Assembly (NCBI GenBank): GCA_963847225.1
Contig: CAWJYZ010000003.1
Location: forward strand, 153,512-217,511
Direction: 5' to 3'
Source of the DNA: an uncultured bacterium
GTDB lineage: Bacteria; Chloroflexota; Dormibacteria; Aeolococcales; Aeolococcaceae
Length of the DNA stretch: 64,000 bases
A program made the translations under genes and the position numbers. The notes beneath the pieces were generated by a model. The model had not been told where the DNA came from and did not search any database. It was given only the letters and a program-made list of their open reading frames with translations. Shown piece after piece: positions 4,438 to 59,395 of this stretch (its first letter is position 1; every line of letters begins with the position of its first letter).

Positions 4438-4529
4438 CCACCCACGCCGGCAGCGCCGAGCCGCGCGGTGCGGAGCGAGGATCAGCCGGGGGATGCACTT
4501 CACCGGGGAATCCATCGACGTCATAGGGT

Positions 4530-4558
4530 TTGACATCAAACGCTTAGATATCTAAAAT
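4530..4558 (+). promoter_or_regulatory. consensus sigma70-type promoter (TTGACA-17 bp-TAAAAT) upstream of the MFS pseudogene
   Basis: TTGACA at 4530-4535, a 17-nt spacer, then TAAAAT at 4553-4558. This sits in an unusually AT-rich stretch of a roughly 70% GC genome. It is followed by a stem-loop (AGCCCTTC...GAAGGGCT at 4559-4588), an AGGAGG ribosome-binding site, and the ATG at 4605. Confidence 0.6.
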
Positions 4559-4604
4559 AGCCCTTCGAGAGCCCCAGCGAGAAGGGCTGCAGGAGGTGAC
4601 GGCC

Positions 4605-5292
4605 ATGACGGGAGTCGTCTCGAGACCGCGGGAGGGGGCGGACCGGCGCCGCTGGTTGGCCCTCGTGTTCATCGCCCTCGCCCAGCTGCTACAGCCCACT
4701 CCAGGCGGGCCTCGCCTTCCTTCCCATGACCGTCGCCTCGCAGTCGGCCTGGCTCATCGCCCGCCGCCTCATGCCGCGGGTGCGGCCGCGCCATCTCGTC
4801 GGTCCCGGGCTCCTCGCCGCCGCCATTGGGATGCTTCTCCTCACCCAGCTGCACGCGGGGAGCGGCTACTTCGCGCAGGTCCTCCCCGCGGAGCTTCTCC
4901 TCGGCGCGGGGCTCTCCTGCGCCATGGTGCCGGCATTCAGCCTCGCCACCCTGGGGGCGGAGATGCGCCAGGCCGGGGTGGCCTCGGCCGCGGTGATGAC
5001 GGCGCAGCAGGTGGGCGGCTCGATCGGCACCGCCCTTCTCAACACGGTCGCCGCGGGCACCACGGCCGCCTATCTGATCGGCCACGGCGCGGGTGCGGCG
5101 GCGCAGCTGACCGCGCTCATCCACGGCTACACGGCGGCCACCGCCTGGGGTGGCGGCTTCCTTCTCGCCGGTGGCGCGGCCGCCCTCCTCCTCATCGACG
5201 CGCCGCGTCCGGCGGCGCAGCATGGGGCGGAGCGGCCGGAGCAGAGGCTCCAGCGCCCGGGTGCGACCGAGGCGCTCCGCGAGTCCGCGTGA
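4605..5292 (+). pseudogene. MFS (DHA2/EmrB-QacA-like) transporter with internal deletion and frame change
   Basis: Frame 0 (4605-about 4695) encodes an MFS N-terminus (RRRWLALVFIALAQLLQ). Frame +1 from about 4700 to 5292 encodes the C-terminal third (LQAGLAFLPMTVASQSAWLIARRLMPRVRP...GGSIGTALLNTVAAG). That C-terminal part aligns closely to the intact paralog at 30530..32059 (LAAGLTFLPQTLAIAVGSQVSSRLIPRLGARP...GGSLGLAVLATLAAD). About 265 aa (TM2 to roughly TM9) are missing. Confidence 0.7.
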
Positions 5293-9005: not shown

Positions 9006-9227
9006 ATGGCTGATGTTCTCGTGCGCGACCTGCCGGAGGAGGTCCTCGCCACGCTCGATCTGCGCGCGGCGCAGCTGGGAATCTCGCGCAGCGAGTACTT
9101 GCGGCGCAGGTTGACTGCGGACGCCACCGCGTCTAGCGGGCCGGTCTTCGTCGAGGACCTGGAGCGCTTTGCGCTGACCTTCGCGGACCTGGCCGACCCT
9201 GAGGTTTTGGCCCAGGCTTGGCGGTGA
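9006..9227 (+). CDS. vapB: type II antitoxin, ribbon-helix-helix (VapB/CopG-like)
   Basis: 73 aa ([36 protein letters not shown]). Two palindromic TGATATCA-like boxes sit immediately upstream at 8988-9005. The reading frame overlaps the downstream PIN gene. Confidence 0.7.
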
Positions 9228-9640
9228 GCACAGGCTGGCTCATCGACAAGTCTGCGCTCGTCCGTCTGCCTGACAGTCCGGATGCGGCCCAATGGGCAAG
9301 GCGAATCGAGCGCGGGATGGTGCGGATCACCACTCTGACCCGGCTCGAGATCGGCTATTCGGCCCGGAGCGCAGCGGATCTGCGATCGGGGTTCCGGCGG
9401 GCTCCCCTCACGACGATGCCGGTGGAGTACCTCACCCCAGCCGTCGAGGGCCGCGCGTTCGAGGTCCTCAGCTTGCTCGCCGACCGCGGGCAACATCGAG
9501 CGCCGTCAATCCCCGACCTGATCGTGAGCGCCGCCGCGGAGCTCGGAGGATTGAGCGTCCTCCACCTGGACAAGGACTTCGAGCTCATTGCCGGGATCAC
9601 GGGCCAACTCATGGAGCGCCTTCAGCTCTCCGCGGTCTGA
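9218..9640 (+). CDS. vapC: PIN-domain toxin VapC
   Basis: 140 aa ([10 protein letters not shown]...[26 protein letters not shown]), a classic PIN toxin architecture. It overlaps the antitoxin by 10 nt. Confidence 0.75.
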
Positions 9641-21408: not shown

Positions 21409-22014
21409 ATGGGGAACGCTGTCCAGCGACCGCGGCTCTTTGCCGGACCAGGACGGCTCGTCATCATCTCCGGTCCCAGCGGGGTGGGCAAGGACACCGT
21501 GCTCCGCGAGCTCTTCCGGATCGCGCCCTGGCTCAACTATTCGATCTCCTACACCACGCGGCCCCCACGTCCCGGGGAGGTGGACGGAAAGTCCTACTCC
21601 TTTGTCGATGAGGCGGAGTTCGAGGCCCTGCGCGAGCGCCATGAGTTCCTGGAGTACGCGAGGGTGCACGGCCATTGGTACGGGACCTCGGAGAGACGCG
21701 TCCGAGAGAGCCTGGAACGCGGTGAGGACATCGTGCTCAAGATCGACGTCCAGGGGGCGGCCTGGATCCGCCCCCGGGTCGAGGGGGCCATCTTCATCTT
21801 CCTGCTCCCGCCGAGCCGCGAAGAGCTGCGCCGCCGCCTCGAGGAGCGCGCCACGGAGTCCGCGGAAAGCCTCGAGCTGCGCTGGGCCGCCGCCGAGGCC
21901 GAGCTCGGCGAGCGAGACCGCTACGATCATCGTGTCGTCAATGACGACGTGGAACGCGCCGCCCGCGAGATCCTCGCCATCGTCGAGCACAGCCGGCCGA
22001 AGGAGAGAGCGTGA
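21409..22014 (+). CDS. gmk: guanylate kinase
   Basis: P-loop ISGPSGVGKDT and the guanylate kinase signature YSISYTTRPPRPGEVDGKSY. Confidence 0.9.
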   Translation: MGNAVQRPRLFAGPGRLVIISGPSGVGKDTVLRELFRIAPWLNYSISYTTRPPRPGEVDGKSYSFVDEAEFEALRERHEFLEYARVHGHWYGTSERRVRESLERGEDIVLKIDVQGAAWIRPRVEGAIFIFLLPPSREELRRRLEERATESAESLELRWAAAEAELGERDRYDHRVVNDDVERAAREILAIVEHSRPKERA

Positions 22015-23332
22015 CAGCTGAGGATCAGCCGGTCGGCGGGGAGCTCGAGGGCCGCCGCATCCTCGTCGGGATCGGCGGTAGCGTCGCCGCCTACAAGGCC
22101 GCCGATCTCGTCGTCCTCCTGCGCCGGCGCGGCGCCTCGGTGCGGGTGGCGATGACCCCCTCGGCGACCCGCTTCATCGCCCCCCTCACCCTGCGCAGCC
22201 TCTCCGCCAACCCGGTCGTCGCCGACCTCTTCGAGCCCACCGAGACGGGCCACGGCATGGAGCACCTCTCGCTGGCCCAATGGTCGGAGCTGCTGGTGAT
22301 CGCCGCCGCCTCCGCCAACCTCATCGCGCGTCTCGCCCTCGGCCTGGCCGACGACGCCGTCACCGCCACCGCGCTCGCCTCCCCCGCCCCGCTCCTCATC
22401 GCCCCGGCCATGGAGACGGCGATGTGGGAGCATCCGGCGACAGCGCAGCACGTGGCCACGCTCCGCGACCGGGGAGCGGTCCTGGTCGGTCCGGAGACGG
22501 GCCGGCTGGCGAGTGGCAGGGAGGGCTTGGGACGCATGGCGGACCCCGCGGCAATCCTGGACGCCGCGGTGAGGCTCCTCCGAGAGCGGCTTCCCCCGGC
22601 CTCGTCGTGAGAGCGGTGCCGCGCCCAGCTGCCGCAGGCCGTCCTGGGGACGCCAGCTCGGGCGGCTCTCTCGCCGGCCTCCGTGTCGTCGTGACCGCCG
22701 GCGGCACCCGGGAAGCCATCGATCCGGTGCGCTTCATCGGCAATCGCTCGAGCGGCAAGATGGGCAACGCGCTCGTCGCCGCCTGCCTCGAGGCCGGGGC
22801 CACCGTCGAGCTCATCACGGCGGCTTCTCCTCCGCCCCCCGCCCCAGGCCTTCGGGTGAGCGCCGTGGAAAGTGCGGCCCAGATGCAGCGTGCCGTCTGG
22901 GAGGCCCTGACGCGAGCCGATGTCCTGCTGATGGCGGCCGCCGTCGCCGATTACCGGCCCCGGGAGGTCGCCCCCCGGAAGCTCAAGAAGAGCACCTCTC
23001 CGCTCCGCATCGAGCTGGAGCCCACGGAGGACATCCTCGCCTCCCTCCGTGAGCATCCGCAGCGGGCGGGCAGCCTGGTGGTGGGCTTCGCCGCCGAGAC
23101 CGACGAAGCGGAGGCGAATGCCGCCGCCAAGCTGCGCGAGAAGGGGATCGACCTCATCGTCCTCAATGACGTCTCCCAGCCAGGCATCGGGATGGGCAGC
23201 GACGACAACGCCGTGACGGTCCTGGATGGCGGCGGCGTCGTGGCCGTCACCGGACGGATGCCGAAGGCCGACATCGCACGCCGCCTGGTGGCCCTCGTCG
23301 CCGAGCGCGTGCCGCCCACGGGAGGCGGCTGA
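22011..23332 (+). CDS. coaBC: bifunctional phosphopantothenoylcysteine decarboxylase / phosphopantothenate--cysteine ligase, frame interrupted near 22600
   Basis: The CoaC flavoprotein domain occupies 22011-22610 (ILVGIGGSVAAYKA). The CoaB domain (LRVVVTAGGTREAIDPVRFIGNRSSGKMG) lies in the -1 frame from about 22660 to 23332. A C5 homopolymer at about 22594-22598 is the likely indel site. Confidence 0.8.
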
Positions 23333-23383
23333 GGGGAAGAAGAGGCTGAGGGAGGGGGAGTGTCTTCTCGGAGCGCTTTCGAG

Positions 23384-23410
23384 GAATGAGGAACGCTCTG
23401 TTCCTCATTC
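23384..23410. repeat. perfect 11-bp-stem hairpin GAATGAGGAAC-gctct-GTTCCTCATTC, member of a small palindromic repeat family
   Basis: An exact inverted repeat seen directly in the sequence. The same GTTCCTCAT(T) core recurs twice in tandem at 49619-49677. Confidence 0.7.
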
Positions 23411-23741
23411 GAGCAAGCGCCACCGCAAAGGGCGTGTGCCTCCCGCCCCCCAGCCGTCCGGCGGTGGGCGCGCCGTCGGGAGGGCGGCGTTGATCAGAAG
23501 CACACGCTGGATCGTGGTCACGAAATCGTCGGCGAGCGCCGCCTGCGCGGCCCGACCGAGCGCCGCCGACACGGGGTTCGAACCTCCGCTCGTCGACGGG
23601 CAGCCGGCACGCGCATTGCCGCCGGCCCTCGCGCATGCCAAGATGTAGGGGCTCGAACGGATGCTCCCACAGTTTGTCGTGGCCACTTGGGAAGAGGGCA
23701 GGGTGGGTGGCCTGGGTCCGCCGGATGGGACGAGGTGGAGG

Positions 23742-25836
23742 ATGACGGGGACGCTGGTAGCACCGGCACCGGTGCCGGAGGGCGACACCAGGACGGCCGG
23801 CGAGGGGGCCGCCGACGGGCACGCCACGCCCTCCCCGCGCTACGCGGACGTGGTCCCTGACACCCGCGCCCTCCTGCCCCAGGAGCGCTACACCTACCTG
23901 GTCCCAGAGGGGATGCGGGAGGAGGTCCGGGCTGGCGTGCGCGTTCGAGTGCCATTTGGCCAGCGCACGGTGCCCGGTCTCGTCATTGCGGTCTCGGCCA
24001 GGTCCGACCACACCGAGGTCCGTCCCCTGGACGCCGTCCTCGATCCCGAGCCCCTCCTCGGCGAGAACCTCCTCGGCCTCGCCGAATGGATCGCGGCCCG
24101 CTACTGCGCGCCACTCGCCGAGGTCCTCAAGGCCATGGTGCCCAAGGGTGCGCGCCCCGCTCGACCGCCGAGCGGACGCCGGCGCGGACCGCGCTCGGAG
24201 TCCGCCGCCCTCGCCGCCGCCCGGGCCACCCACCGGCGCAGCCCTCCTCCCAGGCTGACCCCGGCGCAGGCGGCGGCCGCTCGTCCGCTCCTCGAGGCCA
24301 TCGAGGCCGGCGTCCACCGGCGGGTGCTCCTCCACGGGGTGACGGGGAGCGGGAAGACGGAGGTCTACCTCGCCGCCATCGACGCCGCGCTGCGCCGGAG
24401 GAGGCAGGCGATCTGCCTCGTTCCCGAGATCGCCCTCACCCCCCAGATGATCCGCCGCTTCGCGGTCCGGTTTCCGGGCCGCCTGGCCGTCATCCACTCG
24501 GCGCTCACCGACGCCGAGCGCGCGCTCGAATGGTCCCGCGCCCGCACCGGTGGCATCGACGTCGTGGTCGGCTCGCGAAGCGCCGTCTTCGCGCCGCTCC
24601 CTCACCTCGGGGTGGTCGTCGTCGACGAGGAGGACGCCTCGGCCTACAAGCAGGACCGGATCCCGCGCTATCACGCCGTCGACGTCGCCCTCGAGCTGGG
24701 TCGGAGGGCCGGCGCTCCGGTGGTGCTGGGCAGCGCCACCCCTCGGGTGGAGACCTACTTTCAGGCCCACACCGGGGGGCTCGAGCTCACCACCATCGAG
24801 GCGCGGATCACCGGCAGGCCGCTGCCCCCCATCGAGGTGGTCGACCTGCGCGAGGAGCTTCGCGCCGGCAACCGCGGCCCGCTCTCCGAGACGCTCATCC
24901 GCGCCCTGGACCAATGCCGTGCCGAGGGCGGTCAGTCGATCCTCTACCTGAACCGGAGGGGCACCGCGACGGTCGTGCTCTGCCGCTCGTGCGGGGTGCC
25001 GCTGGAGTGCCGGAACTGCAGCGTCTCCCTTGTCTACCACGCCGGTCGGCGGCGCTGCGACTGCCATTACTGCGGCGCCTCGCGCGATCTCCCGGAGCGC
25101 TGTCCGTCCTGCGGCTCGGCGGCGATCCGTGGGCTGGGCATGGGAACGGAGCGGCTAGAGGCGGAGGTCACCGCCCTCTTCCCGGGCATGCGCCTCCTCC
25201 GCATGGACCGCGACACTGTGCAGCGGCGCGACGCGTATTTCGAGATCTACGAACGGTTTCGGGGCGGCCATGCGGACTGCCTCATCGGCACCCAGATGGT
25301 GGCCAAGGGATGGGACCTGGCGCGGGTGCGATTGGTCGGCATCGTCAACGCCGACACCTCGCTCCACTTCCCCGATTACCGGAGCGGCGAGGTGACGTTC
25401 TCCCTTCTGACCCAGGTGGCGGGGCGCGCGGGCCGGGGCGACGAGCCAGCGCGGGTGATCCTGCAGACCTATAGTCCCGAGCACTACGCGGTCCGTCATG
25501 CCGTGTCGCACGATTACCGGGGGTTCGCCCATGATGAGATCCGGGTGCGTCGCGACCACCGCTTTCCCCCCTATGCGCGCCTCGTCACCTGCACCGTCGA
25601 GTCAGGCCGATGACGGCGTCGCCGAGGCCGCCGCGCGGCGGTGCGCCGCGGATCTCTCTGCTATCCTCGGCAGCGGCGCCGGGCTCGACGTCCTCGGCCC
25701 GACCCCCGCCTTCCTGCACCGCCTTCGTGGCCAGCATCGCTGGCAGGTGACGGTGCGGGGGACGGCGATCGAGAGGGCGTTTCGACATCTGCCGAAAGGC
25801 CGCGGCTGGAGCATCGACGTCGACCCCGCCATGTAG
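23742..25836 (+). CDS. priA: primosomal protein N' (replication restart helicase PriA), frame interrupted near 25600
   Basis: The 3'BD N-terminus, Walker A HGVTGSGKTEVYL, and a Cys4 zinc-binding region (CRSCGVPLECRNCSVSLVYH...CDCHYCG...CPSCGS) are all present. The C-terminal tail (AFLHRLRGQHRWQVTVRG...DVDPAM) continues in frame +1 (25498-25836) after a stop at 25613. The start is either the ATG at 23742 or at 23661. Confidence 0.85.
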
Positions 25837-25877
25837 GGGCGGCGATCCTCAGGGGATCCGAGGAGCTGTGCAGCATC

Positions 25878-27434: not shown

Positions 27435-27911
27435 ATGCCGGCAAGACGACGACCCGAGGACCCGGTCCTCGCGCGCCACCGCCAGGCGAGCCACGAATAT
27501 CACCTGCTCGAGACGTTCGAAGCCGGCGTGGAGCTGGCCGGGACGGAGGTCAAGGCGCTCCGAGCCGGGCTCGCCCAGCTTCGCGAGGGTTACATCCGCA
27601 TCGAGAACGGGGAGGCCTGGCTGGTCGGGGTTCACATCGGCCAATACGCGGCGGGTAACCGCCAGAACCACGATCCCATCCGCCGCCGCCGGCTCCTGCT
27701 CCACGGGCGCGAGATCCGCTACCTCGATCAGCGAGCCCGTCTTGGGGGCTTCACCCTGATTCCGATCCGCCTCTATCTCAAGAACAATCACATCAAGTGC
27801 GAGATCGCCGTGGCGCGCGGCAAGAAGCTGTGGGACAAGCGGGAGGCGATCGCCGCCCGCGACGCTCAGCGCGCCATCGAGAGAGCCACCAGTCGGGCAC
27901 TTCGCGGCTGA
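27435..27911 (+). CDS. smpB: SsrA-binding protein
   Basis: 158 aa with canonical SmpB features (EAGVELAGTEVKALR...GYIRIENGEAWLVGVHI) and the basic C-terminal tail. Confidence 0.9.
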   Translation: MPARRRPEDPVLARHRQASHEYHLLETFEAGVELAGTEVKALRAGLAQLREGYIRIENGEAWLVGVHIGQYAAGNRQNHDPIRRRRLLLHGREIRYLDQRARLGGFTLIPIRLYLKNNHIKCEIAVARGKKLWDKREAIAARDAQRAIERATSRALRG

Positions 27912-30083: not shown

Positions 30084-30470
30084 TCAGGCGGGGGGCAGCT
30101 CGGGGTCGGGCGCCGCCAGGATGGCGTCGACCAGCCCGGGGAAGCGAAGGTCGAGGCCCTCGCGATCAAGACTGGTCATGCGCCGGGTGCCCTCCTCTCG
30201 CTGCGTGACGATGCCCGCGGCGCGGAGCACGTGCAGGTGGTGGCTCATCGTCGACTTGCTGATGGGGAGCCTGAGAGCGCCGCAGGGGCATTCGTCGCCA
30301 GAGGCGAGGCGCCGGACGATGGCGAGGCGCATGGGATCGGCCAGGGCCTGAAGCACCCCGACGACGCCGGGATGGAGGGGCGGAGAGGCTGCCCCAGCGT
30401 TCCCCTCCCCGGCTGCGACCGGAAGCGGGTCCGTCTGGAGGCCAGGTCCGCCTAGAAGTTTGACATCCAT
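30084..30470 (-). CDS. ArsR/SmtB-family transcriptional regulator
   Basis: The winged HTH (LQALADPMRLAIVRRLASGDECPCGALRLPISKSTMSHHLHVLRAAGIV) contains a Cys pair in the metal-sensing position. The start is taken at MDVKLL (128 aa). It is divergent from the MFS transporter. Confidence 0.75.
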   Translation of the reverse strand: MDVKLLGGPGLQTDPLPVAAGEGNAGAASPPLHPGVVGVLQALADPMRLAIVRRLASGDECPCGALRLPISKSTMSHHLHVLRAAGIVTQREEGTRRMTSLDREGLDLRFPGLVDAILAAPDPELPPA

Positions 30471-30503
30471 CGAACTATATCGTACGATCCGCATCGAACT
30501 ATA
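30468..30503. promoter_or_regulatory. putative ArsR operator: two 12-bp direct repeats CATCGAACTATA flanking the 10-bp palindrome ATCGTACGAT in the arsR/MFS divergent intergenic region
   Basis: Read directly from the sequence. This is the AT-richest 36 bp of the locus. Direct repeat 1 overlaps the arsR start codon, and a GGGAGAG ribosome-binding site for the MFS gene follows. Confidence 0.5.
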
Positions 30504-30529
30504 GCAGGACGCGGTAGGGAGAGAGCCAG

Positions 30530-32059
30530 ATGGGGCAGGCGAGCTTCGGGGGGCGACGGCTTCGGACCGGTGGCAAGGGTGCGGGGGAGAGGACGGCACG
30601 CGGCGGGAGCTGGCCCCGGCTTCTGGCCCCCCAGTGGGTCGTCCTCCTCCTCGTCTGTCTCGGCCAGTTCCTGGTCATCCTTGACCTCTCGGTGGTGAAC
30701 GTGGCCCTGCCCTCGATTCGCAGAGACCTCGGTTTCACCGCCGACGGCCTGCAGTGGGTGGTCAACGCCTACGCGCTCACCTTCGCCGGCTTCCTCCTCC
30801 TCGCCGGCCGGGGAGCGGACCGCTTCGGGCGGCGCCGCCTCCTCCTCGCGGGGCTCGCCCTCTTCTCCCTGGCGAGCCTCCTCGACGGCCTGGCGTCGAC
30901 CCAGTGGGAGCTGGTGGCCGCGCGGGCCCTGCAGGGCTTTGGTGGGGCCATCCTCACCCCGGCCACGCTCACCATCCTGATCGCCACCTACCCCGAGGGG
31001 CGGGCGCGAGCTCGGGCTCTCGGGATCTGGAGTGGGGTGGCCGCGGCGGGCGGCGCCGCCGGGGCGCTCCTCGGCGGAGTCATCACCCAGTACCTGAGCT
31101 GGCGCTGGATCTTCTTCATCAACCTGCCGATCGGCATCGTGGTGCTGGTGCTCGCCAGCCTGGTGATCGCCGAGACCTTCGGCGACCTGCGCGGCCGCCA
31201 CCTGGACCTGGGCGGGGCGATCAGCGTCACCGGGGGCCTCTCCGCGCTGGCCTGGGGTATCGCCCGCAGTCAGGCGGCCGGATGGGAGGCCCCCGACGTC
31301 CTGGGCGCCTTCGCCGCCGGGCTCGCCCTTCTCGCCCTCTTCGTCTTCATCGAGGCGCGCCTGGCCCGGGTGCCGCTCGTCCCTCTGCGGCTGTTCCGGT
31401 CCCGTTCGGTCACCGGGGCGAACCTCGTGTCCTTTGGGCTCGGCGCGGCGCTCTTCGCCATCTGGTACTTCCTCTCCCTGTACCTGCAGCAGGTGCGCGG
31501 CTTGACGCCGCTGGCGGCAGGGCTGACGTTCCTGCCCCAGACGCTGGCCATCGCCGTCGGCTCCCAGGTCAGCTCCCGGCTCATCCCGAGGCTGGGGGCG
31601 CGGCCCTTCCTGGTGGGCGGTCCGCTGCTCGGCGTGGCCGGCCTGCTCTGGCTGGCCCAACTCTCCGTGTCCCCGGCGATCTGGTCGGCGGTGCTGATCC
31701 CGGGGGCTCTCCTCACCTTCGGTGCTGGGCTCACCTTCCCGGCCGTCACCATCGCCGCCACGTCGGGCGTGCCTCGCGGAGAGGCTGGCCTGGCCAGCGG
31801 CGTCGTCAACACCAGCCGGCAGGTGGGCGGTTCGCTGGGATTGGCGGTGCTGGCCACTCTCGCCGCCGACCACAGCGCCGCCCTCGCCGCGGCCGGCAGC
31901 GCCGCCCCGGTCGCCCTCACCGGGGGCTACACCCTGGGGCTCGTCGTCGCGGCGGGCGTCGCTCTGGCCACCGCGCTGGCCGGGCTCGTGGTGCCGGGGA
32001 TCGGTCGGCCCGCCCGGCAGGAGAGGCCGATCGGTGAGGTGCAGGAGGCGGCCGCCTGA
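30530..32059 (+). CDS. MFS transporter, DHA2 (EmrB/QacA) 14-TM family
   Basis: 509 aa with about 14 predicted hydrophobic segments and the MFS signature GRGADRFGRRR. It is likely regulated by the adjacent ArsR. Confidence 0.85.
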   Translation: MGQASFGGRRLRTGGKGAGERTARGGSWPRLLAPQWVVLLLVCLGQFLVILDLSVVNVALPSIRRDLGFTADGLQWVVNAYALTFAGFLLLAGRGADRFGRRRLLLAGLALFSLASLLDGLASTQWELVAARALQGFGGAILTPATLTILIATYPEGRARARALGIWSGVAAAGGAAGALLGGVITQYLSWRWIFFINLPIGIVVLVLASLVIAETFGDLRGRHLDLGGAISVTGGLSALAWGIARSQAAGWEAPDVLGAFAAGLALLALFVFIEARLARVPLVPLRLFRSRSVTGANLVSFGLGAALFAIWYFLSLYLQQVRGLTPLAAGLTFLPQTLAIAVGSQVSSRLIPRLGARPFLVGGPLLGVAGLLWLAQLSVSPAIWSAVLIPGALLTFGAGLTFPAVTIAATSGVPRGEAGLASGVVNTSRQVGGSLGLAVLATLAADHSAALAAAGSAAPVALTGGYTLGLVVAAGVALATALAGLVVPGIGRPARQERPIGEVQEAAA

Positions 32060-32369: not shown

Positions 32370-32746
32370 TGGTGGAGCCGAGGGGAATCGAACCCCTGTC
32401 CGAAACCGCGTTCCGCGTGACCTCTACGAGCGTAGTCCCGGTTTTGCTCTCACTCTCGGCGCGCCCTGGGACCAGGCTCGCCGGGAGCCAGCCGCGGTGA
32501 GCGTCCCGGCCGGCGCCGCGGCGCCACCGGCCGGCGAGACCGCTGGTATTTACGTCGGCTCAGGCCCCCGCGGTCGAGGGACCCGACGACGTCAGGCCGT
32601 GGCCTGAGCTTTTTCTCGTTCTACCGCTTACGCGGCGAGGGCGAGAGCAGGTGCGTCGTTCGCACGTATTGTTTTCCCGGTTTTACGAGCCCGGGGCTCG
32701 GCCCGCCATCACACGACCCACGATCCCGTCGAATCCATACGGCCCC
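32370..32746 (-). ncRNA. ssrA: transfer-messenger RNA (tmRNA, ssrA); encoded tag (A)NDAPALALAA
   Basis: The minus-strand 5' end GGGGCCGUAUGGAUUCGACGGG matches the tmRNA 5' consensus. The 3' end ...GGACAGGGGUUCGAUUCCCCUCGGCUCCACCA has a T-arm plus an acceptor stem pairing with GGGGCCG, and CCA is encoded. The internal ORF GCG AAC GAC GCA CCU GCU CUC GCC CUC GCC GCG UAA translates to a tag ending in ALAA. smpB lies 4.5 kb upstream. Confidence 0.85.
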
Positions 32747-37169: not shown

Positions 37170-38174
37170 ATGGAGCTGAAGCGTGAGATCCATCACTCCG
37201 AGATCCTCGACCCCCGGCTCGACTTCGCGGCGTCGCGCACCCCCGTGGAGACCCGCTGGGATCCTCTTCTCGGCTACCCTGCGCGCCTCGTGCGGAGCCT
37301 CAGCCCGCTTCTGCCCCGATCCACCTTCGACCTCAAGGCGCTGGCGGCGAGCACCCGCGAGACCTGCCCCTTCTGCCCGGAGCGGGTCATGTCGGCGACG
37401 CCCCGGCTCGTCCCCGCCATCCACCCCGAGGGACGGATCCACCGCGGGGAAGCTCTTCTCTTTCCCAACCTCCTCACCTACGCCAAGCACAGCTCCGTCT
37501 CCGTCTACTCGCCGGAGCGGCACAGCCTTCCCCTCGAGGAGATGACCGGGCGCCTCATGGCTGACAACCTCGCCACCCAGGTCACGTTCGTCCGTGCGGT
37601 CGCGGCCCATGACGCCTCGGCGCTCTGGGCCTCCGTCAATGCCAACCATCTGCCGCCCTCGGGGAGCTCGCTCTTCCACCCTCATCTGCAGGGGAGCGTC
37701 GACCCGACGCCGTCCACCCTGCAGGTGATGCTCGCCAGCGTCCCCAGGGAGCGGATCGAGATGTACGTTGCCACGGAGCGGCGCCTCGGCGAGCGCTTCA
37801 TCGCCGACACCGGAAGAGTGCGGTGGCTGGCGAGCTTCGCTCCCATCGGCTTCCACGAGGTCCGCGCCGTCGTTCCCGGCCATCTCTCGCCGGCGCAGTT
37901 CGATGAGGCTCTGGTGGAGGAGCTCGGCGCCGGCATTGCGGCGGTCTTGAACCTGTATGCGGAGATGGGGCAGCAGAGCTTCAACATGGCGCTGCTGGGC
38001 GCGCCTCCGGATGGGCGTGACACCATGCTCACGCTCCGGATGGTGTGCCGCGCCAACCCTGGCACCGTCTACCGCTCCGACGTCACGTACTCGGAGCGCC
38101 TGCACTGGCAGGCCGCGGTCGACACGTCGCCGGAGGAGCTCGCCGAGCGCGCTCGGGCGCGATTCTCTCGTTGA
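37170..38174 (+). CDS. GalT-like nucleotidyltransferase (HIT superfamily branch III; galactose-1-phosphate uridylyltransferase / ApnA phosphorylase-like)
   Basis: 334 aa with the zinc-site CPFCP and the active-site HPHLQGS (HxHxQ) motif. Confidence 0.7.
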   Translation: MELKREIHHSEILDPRLDFAASRTPVETRWDPLLGYPARLVRSLSPLLPRSTFDLKALAASTRETCPFCPERVMSATPRLVPAIHPEGRIHRGEALLFPNLLTYAKHSSVSVYSPERHSLPLEEMTGRLMADNLATQVTFVRAVAAHDASALWASVNANHLPPSGSSLFHPHLQGSVDPTPSTLQVMLASVPRERIEMYVATERRLGERFIADTGRVRWLASFAPIGFHEVRAVVPGHLSPAQFDEALVEELGAGIAAVLNLYAEMGQQSFNMALLGAPPDGRDTMLTLRMVCRANPGTVYRSDVTYSERLHWQAAVDTSPEELAERARARFSR

Positions 38175-38447: not shown

Positions 38448-40364
<1,917 letters not shown>

Positions 40365-40491
40365 ACTGCTGGGTCCCTCCAGAACTCGATTGAATGGGTG
40401 CTCGCGGCGCTCGCGCCGCCAAGCACGGTCCGGATATACCGCGGACGCCCTCCATGCTAAACCGCGCGGCATGGGGGTACCGTGGGAGGCC

Positions 40492-40842
40492 ATGGCGGAG
40501 GTCCCCGCGGCCGGTGCCCTGGAGATCCGGCTCGCCGAGCTGCGCAAGCGCGCCGACGAGGACTTCCTGCGGCCGTCCGCGGCCCGGCCTCCGGGCCGTC
40601 ACCAGATCGACATCACCGAGCTGGGCCTGCGGGTGGCCATGACCAGAGCCCGCTATCCCAACCGGGCGGATGGGGTGGAGATGTACGCCGTGACCCTGAG
40701 CCGCCTGGCTCTCGACCATGCCCCCGCGGAGCCCGAGGTGCGCGCCGTCCTGGAGGCCGCCTTCGGGGCGGGGGCGGCGGAGGCGGTGGAGCGGAGCGGC
40801 GGAGGACCGCTGGTGCGCATGTTCCGCTTGCCCGCCGGCTGA
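40492..40842 (+). CDS. hypothetical protein
   Basis: 116-aa ORF from the ATG at 40492. It shows GC3 bias. No family assignment could be made. Confidence 0.45.
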
Positions 40843-40847
40843 GCTTG

Positions 40848-40916
40848 CAGCCCTCCGCCGGCTCCGCGGCATACGCGTCGGCGCCGATGAGCGGCACGAA
40901 GCGGCACGGGCCGAGG
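40848..40916. repeat. roughly 69-bp duplicated copy (about 93% identical) of the pcm 3' coding end (41068-41136)
   Basis: CAGCCCTCCGCCGGCTCC(G/T)CGGCATACGCGTCGGCGCCGAT(G/C)AGCGG... is present at both loci. Copy 1 is non-coding and lies just after a stop codon. Confidence 0.7.
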
Positions 40917-41066
40917 CCCCGCGCGGCAGGCCCCGCGGGGACCCCTTGTCAATAGGGGGCACTGCGGCCCCCTCGCGCCGGATGGCAAAGCCACACGGCG
41001 CTCACCCCCAGCTCGGCGGGACTCCCCGCCGGGCGCCGCGCTTCGCGCGGCTGAGGACCTCGGCCT

Positions 41067-41711
41067 TCAGCCCTCCGCCGGCTCCTCGGCATACGCGTCG
41101 GCGCCGATCAGCGGGACGAAGCGGCAGGGGCCGAGGTCCTCCGTCACCCAGCCGTCCTGGGCGGCGCGGAGGCGGATCAGCTCCTCGCCGTCCGGCCCGA
41201 TGTGGATGGGGACGACGAGGCGCCCGCCGGGGCGGAGCTGGCGGGCGAGCAGGACGGGGAGGCGGGGCGCGGCGGCGCCGACGGCGATGGCGTCGAAGGG
41301 GGTGCGATCGGGGAGACCTAGGCTGCCGTCGGCGGCGACCACCTCGACGTCGATGCCGAGGCGGCCGAGGCGCCGGGCCGCGGCGTCGGCGAGGGCGGGG
41401 ATGCGCTCCACGCTGATGACCCGCGCACCGCAGGCGGACATCACCGCGGCCTGATACCCGCTGCCGGTGCCGATGTCCATGGCGACGTCCCCCGGACGCA
41501 GCTCGAGGGCCTCGACGATGACTGCCACCATGAGGGGCTGGGAGATGGTCTGGCCCTCGCCGATGGGCAGCGCCCGGTCGGCGAAGGCCTCCTCCCGATC
41601 CGCCGGGAGGACGAACTCCTCGCGGGGCACCGCGGCCATGGCGGCGAGGACGCGCTCGTCGCTCACCCCGCCGGCGCGGAGCCTCTCCATCATGGCTGCC
41701 GCGGTGACCAC
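41067..41711 (-). CDS. pcm: protein-L-isoaspartate O-methyltransferase
   Basis: 214 aa with the SAM motif VAMDIGTGSGYQAAVMS and the PIMT signature GQTISQPLMVAVIVEAL. Confidence 0.85.
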   Translation of the reverse strand: MVTAAAMMERLRAGGVSDERVLAAMAAVPREEFVLPADREEAFADRALPIGEGQTISQPLMVAVIVEALELRPGDVAMDIGTGSGYQAAVMSACGARVISVERIPALADAAARRLGRLGIDVEVVAADGSLGLPDRTPFDAIAVGAAAPRLPVLLARQLRPGGRLVVPIHIGPDGEELIRLRAAQDGWVTEDLGPCRFVPLIGADAYAEEPAEG

Positions 41712-46823: not shown

Positions 46824-48291
<1,468 letters not shown>

Positions 48292-48308
<17 letters not shown>

Positions 48309-49581
48309 GCCGGTCGCGCTCCGGGCCGGGAGCCGGCTCCGTGTGCGCTGCGAGCGGATGGTCCAGGGCGGGCTGTGCCTGGCCCACGCCGACGGCGTGA
48401 CCCTCATGGTCGACGGGGGCATTCCCGACGAGCTGGTCGACGTCTCGCTGACCTTTCGCAAGGGGAGGACCTGGTTCGGCGCTGTCGAGCGGGTTCTCGA
48501 GGCCTCCCCGGACCGCGCCGTCCCGCCCTGCCCCTACGTTCCCGAGTGCGGCGGCTGCCAGCTCCAGCACATCGCCTACCCGCGCCAGCTCGACCTCAAG
48601 CGCGACATCCTGCTCGACGCCCTGCGCCGGGCCCGCGTTGCCATCCCGGAGCCGCGCCTCCATGGGATGACGGACCCCTGGCGGTACCGCTGGCGTGGCG
48701 AGTTCCACGTCATCCCCGGGAAGGACGGCGTGGCGCGCGCCGAGCTCGGCTTCAACCGCGCTCGGAGCTGGCGCAAGGTGGCCGTCGACGACTGCCGCAT
48801 TCACCACCCGTCGATCTCGCGGTCGCTGCCAGTGCTCCGCGAACTCGTGCGCCGGGCGGCATCGGATGCCGCCACCGTCCTTCACGTCACCGCCGGAGAA
48901 GATGGGGAGGAGCTCCTGTTGCGCACGAAGCCGGCATCGGCTCTCGACCGTCGCGCCCTCGACGAGATGGCCGCGAGCCTGCCGACATCGCCGAGATGGA
49001 GCACCGATCTCACCACCCTGCACTGGCGGGGAAGGACATTCCGGGTGGCACCGGAGTCCTTCATCCAGGTGAGCTGGGGTCAGCTCGACCTCCTCTACGG
49101 AAGCGCCCTCGTGGCCCTCGGCAGCGTGCGCGATGCGCGCGTCGTCGATGCGTACGCTGGAGTCGGCGTGCTCAGCACCGTCCTGGCCGCCGAGGCTCGT
49201 GAGGTGATCTGCATCGAGAACAACCGCAGCGCCGTGCACATGGGTCGCCTCAATGCTCGGATCAACGGCGTCGACGGCCGTCTCCGCTACGTCCTCGCGT
49301 CGGTGGAGGAGGCCCTGCCGCGGATCGCCGCCGAGGCGCCGGTGGACGGTCTCCTCCTCGACCCGCCGCGCGCCGGCTGCGACGCCCGGGTCACTGCCTG
49401 GCTGGCCCTCACCGGCCCGGCGCGGGTGGTCTACGTCTCCTGCGACCCTGCGACCTTGGCCCGCGACCTCCACCTCCTGGTCGCCTCCGGGCCTTACGCG
49501 GTGGAGTCCCTCGACCTCGTGGACATGTTCCCGCAGACCCACCACATCGAAACGGTGGTGAGCCTCTCCCGGACCGGCTGA
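48292..49581 (+). CDS. rlmD: 23S rRNA (uracil-C5)-methyltransferase RlmD/RumA family (TRAM + [4Fe-4S] + SAM MTase)
   Basis: A TRAM-like N-terminus is followed by the Cys cluster [14 protein letters not shown] and a C-terminal MTase with the DPPRAG motif. Confidence 0.8.
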
Positions 49582-49618
49582 CCTCGGGGGCACACCCGTG
49601 CTGGCGCGGGCGCTGCGC

Positions 49619-49677
49619 GGAACGAGGAAAGCTCCGTTCCTCATCAATTGAACGAGGAATGGTTCGTTCCTCATTAG
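49619..49677. repeat. two tandem diverged copies of the GAA(C/T)GAGGAA-N5-GTTCCTCAT(T) palindromic element
   Basis: GGAACGAGGAAAGCTCCGTTCCTCATC, then GAACGAGGAATGGTTCGTTCCTCATTA. The same element occurs as a perfect hairpin at 23384-23410. Both copies lie in a convergent intergenic region (rlmD and dedA). Confidence 0.65.
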
Positions 49678-49814
49678 GCGTATGGGGTCCTGAGATGGGT
49701 GGCACACTGCGACGCCTTTGCGCTGGCTCAGCGAGGGTTGGGGCGATCCAGGCTCCAGTGGCGTGAGGCGGTGAGCAGCCAGTCACCTGTCGCGCCAGGG
49801 CATGAGCTGAAGCT

Positions 49815-50939
49815 CTAGCGGGGGAACGGTCTGGCCGGCTCCCAAGCCTCCGTCGGAGACGGCGAGGTTGCGATCATCGGTGTGCCTTCCAGCTCAGCCT
49901 CCGCCGTGGCCCTTCCCCCACGCCGCCGGCCCAGCGCCCTGAGCCGGGCGCGGCCGCGCACCCGGAAATAAAGGACGTCGAGGAGGCGCTCGCCGGCCGT
50001 CCGGCCACCGGCGCTGCGCCGGCTCAGGGCGGTGTAGAAGAGGGCCACCGCGGCGACCACCGTCAGGGGCTCGAAGATGCCCTCGGCGGGAATGAGGGGA
50101 AGGCGCGGGATGCGCAGGTGGAGGATGGGCAGGACGATGAGATCGATGCCGGCGACGAGGGTGGCCACGATCCCGGCGTCGGTCGCCGCCGCCACCACGT
50201 ACCGGTAGATGGGGCGCATCCGGGAGAACGGTCCCGGGTACTCCCGGTCGCGGTTGGTGGGCGCCCGGCTGAGGGCCCGCCAGGCCAAGAACGACAGAAC
50301 GATGAAGACGGCCCCGCTCAGCACGAGGTTCTGAATGTCGCCGAGGAAGTGGATGACCGGGATCCCGGCGACGAATCCGATGCCCATGGTCAGCGCGGCC
50401 CAGATGACGACGGCCGGGACATTGCCGCGCAGGAATCGTCCGGGGGGCACCTGTCCGGCCCCGGCGGCAAGGCTCACGTAGACGCGGATGCCGGGAATGA
50501 GCCGGCCCACGAGGATTTGGGGCGCCGACGCCCCGGAGGCCCGCCGCACGGCCCGCTCGTAGTGCCGCGCCGCGCGCAGCCGGCGGGCGATGGTCTGGAG
50601 GTGGGTGGGGCCGGTCACCCGAGCCCAGCTGTAGCCGGTGAAGGACCCGGCGAGCAGGGCGAGAATGGCGAGGGGAGGGAACTCGACCGGGCTCAGCCCT
50701 CCGGATGCGATGAGAAGGCCGCCCAGCATGAGCAGCACCTCGTTGGGGGTGATGAAGAGGGGGACCCCGGCCTCGTCGATGAGGAGAAGGGAGCAGATGA
50801 GCACGGTGGCCGCGATACCGTGCAGCCCGGTGAGCAGGCCGACGCTGATGTCGGCGGTCACGAGGCCGGAGGCGGGGCCGGCCAAGCCATGAGGGCGGCG
50901 GCCCAGCCCGAAGGGAGACGACGACGTATGCGGTGGCAC
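49815..50939 (-). CDS. DedA/VTT-domain family membrane protein with additional C-terminal membrane domain
   Basis: 374 aa, multi-TM. The DedA core is LLIDEAGVPLFITPNEVLLMLGGLL...GRLIPGIRVYVSLAAGAGQV. Confidence 0.7.
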   Translation of the reverse strand: MPPHTSSSPFGLGRRPHGLAGPASGLVTADISVGLLTGLHGIAATVLICSLLLIDEAGVPLFITPNEVLLMLGGLLIASGGLSPVEFPPLAILALLAGSFTGYSWARVTGPTHLQTIARRLRAARHYERAVRRASGASAPQILVGRLIPGIRVYVSLAAGAGQVPPGRFLRGNVPAVVIWAALTMGIGFVAGIPVIHFLGDIQNLVLSGAVFIVLSFLAWRALSRAPTNRDREYPGPFSRMRPIYRYVVAAATDAGIVATLVAGIDLIVLPILHLRIPRLPLIPAEGIFEPLTVVAAVALFYTALSRRSAGGRTAGERLLDVLYFRVRGRARLRALGRRRGGRATAEAELEGTPMIATSPSPTEAWEPARPFPR

Positions 50940-51019
50940 ACGCTCACGTCCCGAGAATACGGCCGCCGCGCCGCATGCGAGCGCCTTTCCGCGTGCTAAC
51001 GTACGTGCGTTCGAGGAGG

Positions 51020-54000
51020 ATGGCGGCCGGGGAGATGACCGGGGAGGCGGCGGAGAGCGGTGCGCGCGAGGTTCGCGGAGAGCCCGGCGAAGCGGGATTC
51101 GTCCATCTCCACACCCACAGCGAATACTCGCTGCTCGACGGGGCCGCGCGCATCACCGACCTGGTGCGGCGAGCGGTGGAGATGGGCCAGCCGGCCATCG
51201 CGGTCACCGACCACGGTGTCCTCTACGGCGCCGTCGACCTCTACACGGAGGCAATGGCGGCCGGGATCAAGCCGATCATCGGCTGCGAGACGTACATGGC
51301 GCCGCGGTCGCACCGGGACAAGGAGGGGCGGGCCGACCGCGACCCGCACCACCTCGTCCTCCTGGCCCAGGACGCCGAGGGCTGGCGCAACCTGCTGGCG
51401 CTGGTCAGCAGGGCGCACCTCGAGGGCTACTACTACAAGCCGCGCATCGACAAGGCGCTTCTCGCCGAGCACAGCCGGGGCCTCATCTGCCTCTCCGGCT
51501 GCTTGGGCGGCGAGCTTCCTCAGACCATCCTGAGCGGCGACCTCGCTGCCGCTGAACGGGTGGCCCGGGAGCATGCCGAGATCTTTGGGGCGGATTCGTA
51601 CTTCCTGGAGCTGCAGGACCATGGCATGGCCGAGGAGGCGGCGGTTCGCGAGGGCCTCCTCACCATCGCGCGCCGGACCGGGCTGCCGCTCCTATGCACC
51701 AATGACTCGCACTACATCGATCCTGAGGACGCCGACGCCCACGACATCCTCCTCTGCCTCCAGACGGGCTCCCGGCGCGACGACGAGAAGCGCTTCCGCT
51801 TCTCTGGCCCCCACTACTACCTGGCCAGCGGCCAGGAGATGCACGCTCGCTTCCAGGCCTTCGGGGAGGCGGCGGCCAACACCCTGGAGGTCGCCCGTCG
51901 CTGCGACTGGAAGCTGGAGCTGGGCAGCCATCACCTCCCGGCGTACTCGCCCATCCCCCCCGGGCAGGATGCCGACTCCTACCTCGCCGAGCTCTGCGAG
52001 CAGGGTCTGCGGGAGCGCTATGGGGCCGGCCCCCCCCAGGTGGCCCGCGAGCGCCTCGCCATGGAGCTGGACGTCATCCGCCAGACGGGGTTCGCCGCCT
52101 ACTTCCTCATCGTCTGGGACCTCATCCGGGCGGCTCGCGGCGAAGGGGTGGTGGTCGGCCCGGGGCGGGGCAGCGCCGCCGGGTCGCTGGTCGCCTACAC
52201 GCTGCGCATCACCAACGTCGACCCGCTGCGCTACGGCCTGATCTTCGAGCGCTTCCTCAACGCGGAGCGCGTCGAGATGCCGGACATCGACATCGACTTC
52301 GATGATCGCCGGCGTGACCGCGTCCTCCAGTACGTCACCCAGAAGTACGGACAGGACCGGGTGGCGCAGATCATCACCTTCGGGACGATGGCGGCGCGGG
52401 CCGCGATCCGTGACGTCGGCCGGGTCCTCGACGTCCCTCTTCCCGACGTGGACCGGCTCGCCAAGCTGGTGCCGGCGACGATCGGCATCACCCTGGAGCG
52501 GGCGCTCTCGGAGTTGCGCGACCTCCACGACGTCTATGCGGGTGAGGACTGGGCCAAGAACACCATCGATATCGCCCGGCGCCTGGAAGGCATCTCGCGC
52601 AACGCGTCGACGCACGCCGCCGGGGTTGTGATCGGCGCTGAGCCGCTCGCCGGCATCGTGCCCCTCGGACGTTCAACCTCGGGCAGCGAGGGCGTGGTCA
52701 CCCAGTTCGACATGAAGGGTGTGAGCCGCATCGGCCTCCTCAAGATGGACTTCCTGGGACTGGCCAACCTCACCGTCATCCAGGAGGCGGTCGAGAACAT
52801 CGAGCGGACGCGCGGCATCCGCATCGATATCGACGCCATCCCCCTGGACGACCCCGCAACCTACGAGCTGCTGGGACGCGCCGATACCCATGGTGTCTTC
52901 CAGCTCGAGGCCACCCTAGGCAAGCGAATCCTCATCGACATGCAGCCTCGCTCCCTGGAGGACCTGGCCGCCGCCAACGCTCTCATCCGCCCCGGGCCCC
53001 TGGAGGGCAAGGTCGTCGACCTCTACATCCGGCGCCGCCGCGGCGAGGAGCCTATCACCTACCTGCTCCCCGAGATGGAGCCGATCCTGGCCGAAACGTT
53101 CGGAACCATGATCTACCAGGACCAGGTCATGAAGATCGCTTCCCAGGTGGCCGGCTTCAGCCTGGGCGAGGCCGACATCCTGCGCTCCGCGATGGGCAAG
53201 AAGGACAAGCTCAAGATGGCCCAGCAGCGCGAGAAGTTCCTGCTCGGAGCGGAGGCGCGGGGCGTAGCCGAGGCCACCGCCGCGGAGCTCTTTGACCTCA
53301 TCGGCTTCTTCGCGGGCTATGGCTTCAACAAGGCGCATGCGATGTGCTACGGCCTCATCGGCTACCAGACCGCCTACCTCAAGGCCAACTATCCGCTGGA
53401 GTTCATGGCCGCTCTGCTCAACAGCCGGGCGGGCGATTTCGACAAGTTGAAGCAGACCATCCTCGACGCCCAGGCGCGCGGTCTCACCGTGGTGCTGCCG
53501 GACGTCAACCGCAGCGAAGCGAACTTCGCGGTCGGTGACGCCCAGCGCGGCGAGATCCTCTATGGGCTGCGCCACATCAAGAATGCCGGAGAGCGTGTCA
53601 TCGAGCAGCTCGTCGAAGAGCGCCGTAACGGGGGACCCTACCTGAACCTCTACGACCTCTCACTCCGAGTGGGAGGACGCGACCTCAACCGGAGGGTGAT
53701 GGAGGCCTTGATCCGCAGCGGGGCCTGCGATTCATTGGGCGAGCGCGCCACCCTGCTCGCCACCCTCGACCGGGCCATGGACCAGGCGGCCCAGGTCCGC
53801 CGCGAGCGCGAGCTCGGCCAGGCCTCGCTCTTCGGGGAGAGCCCCGAGGCGGGGAATGGGGCGCCCGCCTTCACCGACGGCTTTGGCTCCGTCGCCCCGG
53901 TTCCTCCCCTCGCCGCCGACGAGCGGCTGCGCTGGGAGCGCGAGCATCTCGGCATGTATCTCAGCGACCACCCGCTGCGCCGTATCGCCGACCGCCTGTC

Positions 54001-59258: not shown

Positions 59259-59395
59259 CTCTCCTCTGGGCAACCCCTGGCGAGTGTAGCGTGTCGAAAC
59301 TACGAAATGGCGCAGCCGATCCGGCCTCGGCAACGCAGCCTCGGATACCTTCTGGGCGCGACGGTACTCCGCTTCCGCGAGAATGTCGATCCCAC

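Follow-up and report, generated by a model that had tools for sequence, protein, structure and literature searches.

A palindromic repeat at gene 3' ends in a Dormibacterota contig, tentatively read as a REP-like element

We describe a palindromic element of about 27 bp that occurs in three copies at two sites of a 64,000-nucleotide stretch of contig CAWJYZ010000003.1 (assembly GCA_963847225.1) from an uncultured bacterium of the Dormibacterota; this whole 64-kb stretch is called the window below. The palindromic repeat is real and non-random. Its three copies are tentatively read, with a confidence that stays a little short of even, as a lineage-specific extragenic palindromic repeat that resembles the repetitive extragenic palindromic (REP) elements and would form stem-loops in 3' untranslated regions (3' UTRs). 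The Dormibacterota abound in soil, and nearly all that is known of the phylum comes from metagenome-assembled genomes. To our knowledge, almost nothing is known about their non-coding DNA, 3'-end formation or mobile elements, and a literature search returned no repeat literature for the phylum.

Three Copies of a Palindrome at Two Sites

The element is present once at site 1 and as a tandem doublet at site 2:

Copy 1 (site 1), 23384-23410: GAATGAGGAAC-GCTCT-GTTCCTCATTC, a perfect 11-bp stem with a 5-nt loop, 48% GC
Copy 2a (site 2), 49620-49646: GAACGAGGAAA-GCTCC-GTTCCTCATCA
Copy 2b (site 2), 49650-49676: GAACGAGGAAT-GGTTC-GTTCCTCATTA

An earlier note on this DNA had reported a perfect 11-bp-stem hairpin at 23384-23410 and two tandem, diverged copies between the convergent genes rlmD and dedA. 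All three are present in the sequence; only the span given for the doublet, 49619-49677, was one base off at either end and is corrected here to 49620-49676. The two units of the doublet are separated by a 3-nt gap and repeat with a period of 30 nt. Pairwise identities among the three copies are 22/27, 21/27 and 23/27. Since the innermost arm pair is lost in both copies 2a and 2b, the conserved architecture consists of 10-bp arms around a variable 7-nt center (CGCTCTG, AGCTCCG and TGGTTCG in the three copies). The unit can thus be written as 10-11-bp arms, GAAYGAGGAA(N) and (N)TTCCTCATY, around a variable center of 5-7 nt. Copy 1 is also readable as a series of heptads (CGAGGAA.TGAGGAA.C ... 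G.TTCCTCA.TTCGAGC).

Two pattern searches of the window recovered the same three copies. GAGGAA-N7-TTCCTC with at most one mismatch gave three matches, where 0.08 are expected, and none of 100 shuffles of the window reached three. For ATGAGGAA-N7-TTCCTCAT with up to three mismatches the identical three matches were found (0, 1 and 1 mismatches; 0.07 expected), and the next-best matches have four mismatches. A covariance model built from all three copies scores them at 44.5 (copy 1), 42.1 (copy 2a) and 32.1 bits (copy 2b), and its next match in the window, inside the priA coding sequence, reaches 15 bits. Copy 1 is the longest perfect short-loop hairpin of the window and the sole one with AT-rich arms. 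The GC content of the copies is 44-52% (about 48%), as against 71% for the window. In addition, an independent Logan assembly of run ERR11594399 equals the window from 47679 to 51127 at 3448 of 3449 bases and contains an identical doublet, which is therefore not an assembly artefact.

That unrelated hairpins merely look alike by chance is extremely improbable. Such a view could draw on the fact that only two loci are known. It could also draw on the strict scan pattern GAAYGAGGAA-N6-GTTCCTCAT, which matches all three copies of the window and which, in 185,579 species genomes (596 Gb; the window's species is not included), met 12 loci in different lineages of unrelated phyla, at about the chance rate. 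However, the excess over expectation in both window searches, the shuffles, and the clear gap between copies with 0-1 mismatch and noise at four or more speak against it, and for an AT-rich sequence in a 71% GC genome a chance match is still less likely. Chance similarity is effectively refuted.

Position of the Element Relative to Genes

The genes around the two sites are the following:

coaC, 22011-22610: separate open reading frame (ORF), Pfam PF02441
coaB (DFP domain), 22607-23332, + strand: Pfam PF04127, start approximate; upstream of copy 1
priA, 23661-25833, + strand: assigned by Pfam and tblastn of homologs, frame shifts near 25598; downstream of copy 1
rlmD-like RNA (uracil-5) methyltransferase gene, 48343-49581, + strand: Pfam PF05958, P0121 100% identical over 412 aa; upstream of the doublet
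DedA/VTT-domain membrane protein gene, 49815-50939, - strand: Pfam PF09335 and homologs; convergent on the doublet

Site 1 starts 51 nt past the stop of coaB (23332) and ends 250 nt before the start of priA (23661). Site 2 starts 38 nt past the stop of the rlmD-like gene (49581), and 138 nt separate its end from the stop codon of the DedA/VTT gene (49815), which converges on it. All three copies are non-coding, in line with the earlier note, which placed them in intergenic DNA at gene 3' ends; the two sites start 38-51 nt past the stops of + strand genes. The non-coding share of the window is 10.3%, so that two independent loci would both be non-coding with P ~0.011. Similarity between the two gaps is limited to the element itself (about 29 nt), and hence a small autonomous unit fits better than a duplicated segment. 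The neighboring genes were also as named before, except that coaBC was taken for a fusion: according to Pfam and to the relatives, coaC and coaB are separate genes. Their ORFs overlap in different frames, and the same split is found in the gene calls of several Dormibacterota relatives; it appears from these gene calls to be a feature of the clade and no error.

A coding origin of the element was rejected, as the reading frames of the two sites do not agree and the ATG of the hairpin is missing from copies 2a and 2b. The options discarded were a read-through extension of coaB or rlmD, a 35-aa ORF starting at the hairpin ATG and a 9-codon upstream mini-ORF.

Pfam scans of about 38 window ORFs identified only housekeeping and metabolic genes, namely murC-like, MTHFR, HtrA, the ileS block, lspA, gmk, coaC, coaB and priA, and further fmt, smpB, hflX, MFS, dnaK, PCMT, gatCAB, dnaE, yggT, lgt, a ParA-like ATPase and Moa/Moe genes. 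These ORFs yielded no transposase, RAYT, integrase, resolvase or LexA.

The gene priA shows some peculiarities of its own. Aligned with the closest relative (L013), both the leader and the start ATG of priA are conserved. Right after the first few residues the PriA of the window contains an extra segment of about 50 aa (23661-23830) that is absent from all homologs examined. At the 3' end (25560-25840), the last 80-90 or so residues of homologous PriA align in another frame, at 25564-25833. Either a sequencing indel accounts for the shift near 25598, or priA has a genuine frameshift or is a pseudogene.

Folding and Termination

The folding energies that had been proposed as a check were calculated. 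Copy 1 folds with -15.6 kcal/mol (z = -7.1). When its surroundings are included (23360-23435), the minimum-free-energy folds of the two strands reach -34.1 kcal/mol (z = -3.0) and -35.4 kcal/mol (z = -4.2), and they contain a longer structure:

Predicted extension of the site 1 hairpin, 23373-23420: GCGCTT (23373-23378) pairs with AAGCGC (23415-23420) across an internal loop in the minimum-free-energy folds

This predicted extension is seen at site 1 only, and the flanks of site 2 are dissimilar. The doublet of site 2 can be folded as a single long hairpin, with -39.8 kcal/mol (z = -1.6) for the + strand and -33.3 kcal/mol (z = -3.5) for the - strand; this is possible because each unit is itself palindromic, and the observation concerns one doublet only. 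By z-score the fold is better on the - strand than on the + strand. The same asymmetry is seen in the arms: copy 2a has mismatches at arm positions 2 and 4, which read as C.A/A.C on the + strand and as G.U on the - strand. The arm substitutions in 2a and 2b are transitions, and pairing is kept as G.U on the - strand, which is the mRNA strand of dedA. Such G.U-preserving substitutions are a weak hint of selection at the RNA level.

Stable hairpins shortly past stop codons bring terminators to mind. The earlier note had offered bidirectional terminators as one option, and in the classical sense this option fails: no T-tract follows any copy, the tails being GAGCAAGCG, AATTGAAC and GGCGTATGG, and terminator scans at both loci gave no terminator-like site. 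A canonical intrinsic terminator was therefore rejected.

A second version of the idea is that the palindromes are dedicated stop signals without T-tract, at which a factor recognizes the double-stranded RNA stem, as in the concept of the 'Tuberculosis Rho-independent terminator' motif (TRIT; Gardner et al., 2011, PMC3152330), and which act bidirectionally between convergent genes. We regard such a factor-dependent terminator as distinctly unlikely. The hairpins are stable and lie 38-51 nt past stop codons, and hairpins with T-tract are rare in the window, which makes another mode of 3'-end formation plausible. TRIT also offers a precedent for a conserved palindromic hairpin at gene ends of a high-GC genome, with 147 copies that are mostly bidirectional (PMC3152330). 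However, terminator activity of hairpins without U-tract was not reproduced in vitro, where purified mycobacterial RNA polymerase did not stop at them even with NusA and NusG (PMC3993855). The element is found at only two of the many gene ends of the window, and most convergent and co-directional ends do without it. Furthermore, relatives have GC-rich, unique hairpins at the same gene ends, the C.A mismatches weaken the + strand stems of site 2, and at least one canonical hairpin with T-tract exists in this genome (38315-38372).

This last structure is a perfect 19-bp inverted repeat, AAGGTCACGTTTAAGGTCA-N14-TGACCTTAAACGTGACCTT, followed by GTTTTTT, with an internal direct repeat (AAGGTCA, twice). 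Its neighbors are a + strand gene (37170-38174) and dnaK (38448-40547, - strand), both of which end toward it, and in its sequence it looks like a canonical intrinsic terminator, the clearest of the window.

Distribution in Relatives and Wider Scans

Homologs of PriA, of the RlmD-like protein and of the DedA-like protein all come from Candidatus Dormibacterota metagenome-assembled genomes and soil metagenomes. The junction between coaB and priA differs in every relative examined and holds 0 to 6 genes (six in L014, two in L015, three in L019). In L013, with 92% PriA identity, an MFS transporter gene stands directly upstream of priA, and DNA similarity begins only at the priA coding region. At the rlmD/dedA junction the number of genes ranges from 0 to 3, or dedA is missing. 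Two relatives (L041 and L044) lack dedA and have an unrelated gene of 167-169 aa instead, in L046 dedA is separated from rlmD by asnA and an SBP gene, the junction of L048 contains three small genes, and in L045 (87% DedA identity) another convergent gene overlaps the dedA stop. Gene order in the remaining block (gatCAB to rlmD; dnaE, yggT, lgt) is kept in the relatives, so that rlmD/dedA is the sole variable junction of the gatCAB-lgt block. As both sites fall on junctions with variable gene content, they appear to be dispensable DNA.

No copy of the palindrome was found by word search in about 135 kb of non-redundant orthologous and neighboring Dormibacterota DNA. The covariance model likewise found none in this DNA, its best scores being 14.5 and 12.1 bits (E > 0.1). 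The gene-end gaps of the relatives contain GC-rich hairpins, each of which is unique in sequence. Tblastx of the gaps against the inserted genes of the relatives gave high-GC compositional noise only and was disregarded.

Outside the species genomes, the strict pattern met 16 loci or contigs in JGI metagenomes, mostly of low GC, and one locus in viral contigs. None of the strict-scan matches shows homology to the window. Apart from L009 and four metagenome contigs like it, which carry tandem arrays of 42-nt units (see below), no genome or contig of the wide scans had several loci. BLAST against plasmids and phages gave no match, no other dispersed repeat family was found in the 64 kb, and the only papers in which a literature word search met the element sequence were unrelated ones, on eukaryotes or methods, where it seems to be that of oligos. 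Judged from these sequence comparisons, the element is specific to this Dormibacterota group.

The variable junctions also bear on another explanation, in which site-specific recombination of the tyrosine-recombinase type uses the palindromes as core sites or left them behind as scars; with their 10-bp inverted arms and 7-bp overlap they would mark the gain and loss of cassettes. The 10-7-10 architecture is compatible with that of recombinase core sites such as lambda att, loxP and dif. Both sites coincide with junctions of variable gene content, and one of them is the only such junction in an otherwise conserved block. Even so, we consider recombination sites very unlikely. No integrase, resolvase or transposase is encoded in the window, and there is no tRNA or tmRNA at either site. 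The genes inserted in relatives are ordinary metabolic and membrane genes that are not flanked by the palindrome, and the three centers differ, so that the sites would be unable to recombine with one another. Long variable junctions may simply tolerate any selfish or neutral repeat. A bolder form of the idea sees the palindrome as the signature of an undescribed Dormibacterota mobile or recombination system at cassette junctions, possibly part of a cross-phylum family of heptad hairpins, together with the apparently acidobacterial look-alikes described below, that was spread by a shared enzyme; this too we would give little credence.

Known site types did not fit either. The segment GGGGTTCGAACCTCC of the coaB-priA gap was dismissed as a tRNA relic or an integration site, as no tRNA was found. 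Integron attC sites have the form R'' RYYYAAC ... R' GTTRRRY, a length of 57-141 bp and extrahelical bases. The element was rejected as attC, as GAGGAAC and GTTCCTC violate YYY and RRR and the unit has only 27 bp. A dif site occurs once per chromosome, near the terminus, and is 28 bp long (11-6-11). The palindrome has three copies with centers of 5-7 nt, no GC-skew switch occurs in the window, and a dif/Xer site was thus discarded. CRISPR was rejected on architecture.

Assignment as a REP-Like Element

Among the options raised earlier, a REP-like repeat is the one that fits best, since the element is extragenic, palindromic, present as singlet and doublet, lineage-specific and of deviant composition, with the reservation that only three copies are known, in 64 kb. 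REP and REPIN elements are palindromes mobilized by RAYT transposases (Bertels and Rainey, 2011, PMC3116915), and REP families typically differ between related strains (PMC3116915). The absence of the element from the DNA of the relatives resembles this strain-to-strain variation, and a GC content of about 48% in a 71% GC genome marks it as compositionally foreign. These traits, together with the location in dispensable junction DNA, are those reported of REP and REPIN populations (PMC3116915). A REPIN is a doublet of inverted orientation that forms a hairpin.

In such a scenario, a unit would have been copied into dispensable non-coding DNA just downstream of genes. By REP precedent the copying enzyme would be a single-copy Y1 transposase (RAYT) encoded elsewhere in the genome; RAYT genes mostly have REPs at their flanks. 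One insertion would have stayed single, and the other would then have undergone local tandem duplication. The element may be transcribed within the 3' UTRs of coaB, of the rlmD-like gene and/or of dedA, where its stem-loops could shield 3' ends from exonucleases or help to curb read-through. We infer such an RNA role of the hairpins.

Several points weigh against this assignment. Only the three copies at two loci of the window are known, whereas REP families normally have tens to hundreds of copies. The ORFs of the window include no RAYT, IS200-type transposase or other mobile-element protein, and the strict scans of species genomes and JGI metagenomes revealed no Dormibacterota genome or contig with multiple copies. 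The G.U argument comes down to two independent substitutions, with P ~0.25 under neutrality, which is not significant. The flanks (left TTTCGAG, GCGCG and CAATT, right GAGCA, ATT and GGCGT for copies 1, 2a and 2b, respectively) share no common motif and have neither a target-site duplication nor a GTAG-type 5' motif. In the REPs of enterobacteria and pseudomonads, a conserved 5' tetranucleotide (GTAG-type) stands beside the hairpin.

If many copies exist genome-wide, the element would be the first REP-like family described for the Dormibacterota and could serve as a marker for strain typing and for the persistence of such elements in very GC-rich genomes. Few copies at gene-flux junctions would instead indicate a role in recombination or protein binding. 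The practical consequence is small either way, with no bearing on a long-standing open question.

Protein-Binding Sites and Other Identities

The palindromes could also be sites for a dimeric, sequence-specific DNA-binding protein, either a transcription factor or a nucleoid or chromosome-organization protein with parS- or Noc-site-like targets. The arms would then be 10-bp inverted half-sites spaced by 7 bp, and site 2 would be a double site. This explanation is unlikely. In its favor, strongly conserved arms around a variable center are typical of operators, the copy number is low, and the 30-bp period of the doublet corresponds to about three helical turns. However, site 2 is flanked on both sides by the ends of convergent genes and has no promoter to control, and site 1 ends 250 nt upstream of priA, the conserved leader of which is located elsewhere. 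Promoter scans gave no promoter-like hexamers at either site, and neither site has a regulator or ParB-like gene next to it. The ParA/MinD-like ATPase of the window (57396-59333) is conserved in relatives that do not have the motif. Relatives with the same flanking genes do not have the site, which is unusual for a conserved operator. GC skew across the window has no origin or terminus signature, and a role as origin, terminus or parS-like site was set aside on this account.

A special case is the binding site of LexA, as the earlier note had pointed out a GAAC-N5-GTTC core resembling the Cheo box (GAAC-N4-GTTC). The core is indeed present in copy 1, but in copies 2a and 2b the left tetramer is GAAA and GAAT, respectively. 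The spacer is N5 and not N4, the sites are at gene 3' ends and not in promoters, and the window contains no GAAC-N4-GTTC at all. No SOS gene is adjacent except priA, 250 nt off. The probability that these are Cheo-type SOS boxes is close to nil, and a LexA identity is not supported.

Rfam at gathering thresholds matched the window only at the tmRNA (32370-32746), and permissive Rfam scans of both gaps gave noise only.

Look-Alike Hairpins in Other Contigs

Similar arm words were met in contigs that appear to be acidobacterial. In L034, a soil contig of 68% GC, the same arm word stands at the center of a long hairpin of TGARGAA / TTCCTCA heptads. This hairpin (150-232) fills the whole gap between convergent genes, has about five heptads per arm and folds with -40.7 to -43.4 kcal/mol (z = -5 to -7). 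L009, which is labelled Acidobacteria, carries at 308-740 about ten 42-nt units arrayed in tandem (78% matches). In each unit a AATGAGGAAT-GGACT-GTTCCTSAT hairpin is joined by a GGGGAAAGCCC segment, the fold is strong (z = -5 to -7), and ORFs cross the array on both strands. The same 42-nt unit is carried by the metagenome contigs L026, L029, L035 and L036. These contigs were picked by a pattern that forces the arm match and have nothing beyond the arms in common with the window; for this reason they are treated as analogues and not as demonstrated relatives. From the sequences compared, convergence or chance is a plausible account of the resemblance.

Other Features of the Window

A tmRNA gene lies at 32370-32746 on the - strand (Rfam, 161.6 bits; tag peptide ANDAPALALAA), about 4.5 kb from smpB (27435-27911). 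It is the single gene of its kind in the window, and no tRNA was found there.

A direct repeat of 77 nt with 91% identity and 220-nt spacing occupies 40843-40919 and 41063-41139. Its second copy overlaps the 3' end of the gene for PCMT (protein-L-isoaspartate methyltransferase, 41067-41711), and the repeat may be a partial local duplication.

Three AT-rich segments precede genes. The island at 30450-30504, upstream of an MFS gene (30530-32059), contains TTGACA and a direct repeat (CATCGAACTATA, twice); relatives have an ArsR-type HTH_20 gene at this position, and the island is probably a promoter with operator. About 200 nt upstream of a PIN-domain (VapC-like) gene (9218-9640), the segment 8980-9022 with the near-repeat GTGATATCATGCGATATCAATGG is possibly the promoter and operator of a toxin-antitoxin system. 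The ORF at 4726-5292, preceded by a promoter-like island (4509-4574), has a match to the MFS_1 profile in the C-terminal third only (positions 258-347) and may be a truncated transporter gene or another frameshift.

Comparison with Known Systems

With the LexA Cheo box the element has in common only the inverted GAAC...GTTC tetramers of copy 1, at a spacing of 5 instead of 4 and outside promoters; copies 2a and 2b do not have them.

The hairpins and arrays with TGAGGAA arms share the arm word (A)ATGAGGAA ... TTCCTCAT(T) around a center of 5-7 nt, and the hairpin of L034 is positioned between convergent genes like site 2. Copy 2b (GAGGAATGGTTCGTTCCTCATTAGG) resembles the unit of L009 (GAGGAATGGACTGTTCCTGATTAGG). 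However, they belong to another phylum, L034 has five heptads per arm, and the arrays, of about 10 x 42 nt, include another hairpin that is G-rich; the likeness ends with the arm.

Like canonical intrinsic terminators, the element is a stable stem-loop shortly past a stop codon. In contrast to them it has no T/U-tract, its stem is AT-rich instead of GC-rich, and one sequence is reused at different genes. The likeness to TRIT extends to a sequence-conserved palindromic hairpin without U-tail, located at gene termini of a high-GC genome of Gram-positive type and potentially bidirectional. TRIT, however, is restricted to Mycobacterium, has 147 copies and lies in a narrow zone around -8 relative to the stop, where it overlaps the end of the coding sequence (PMC3152330), whereas the distance here is +38 to +51; this comparison concerns architecture and position.

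From REP and REPIN elements the palindrome differs in that only three copies are known, from 64 kb, with no RAYT in the window and no GTAG-like 5' tetranucleotide. It is AT-rich in a very GC-rich genome, and no REP family is described for the Dormibacterota. Only 3 bp separate the doublet units; in Pseudomonas, doublets peak at next-neighbor distances of 71 and 110 bp (PMC3116915). On the other hand, the element is found in one lineage only and is missing from related genomes, as is the case for REP families. It is likewise an imperfect palindrome of about 27 bp with 10-11-bp arms, within the REP range of about 20-40 nt, it is strictly extragenic, at gene ends and between convergent genes, and it occurs as a singlet and as a close doublet that is able to fold into a longer hairpin.

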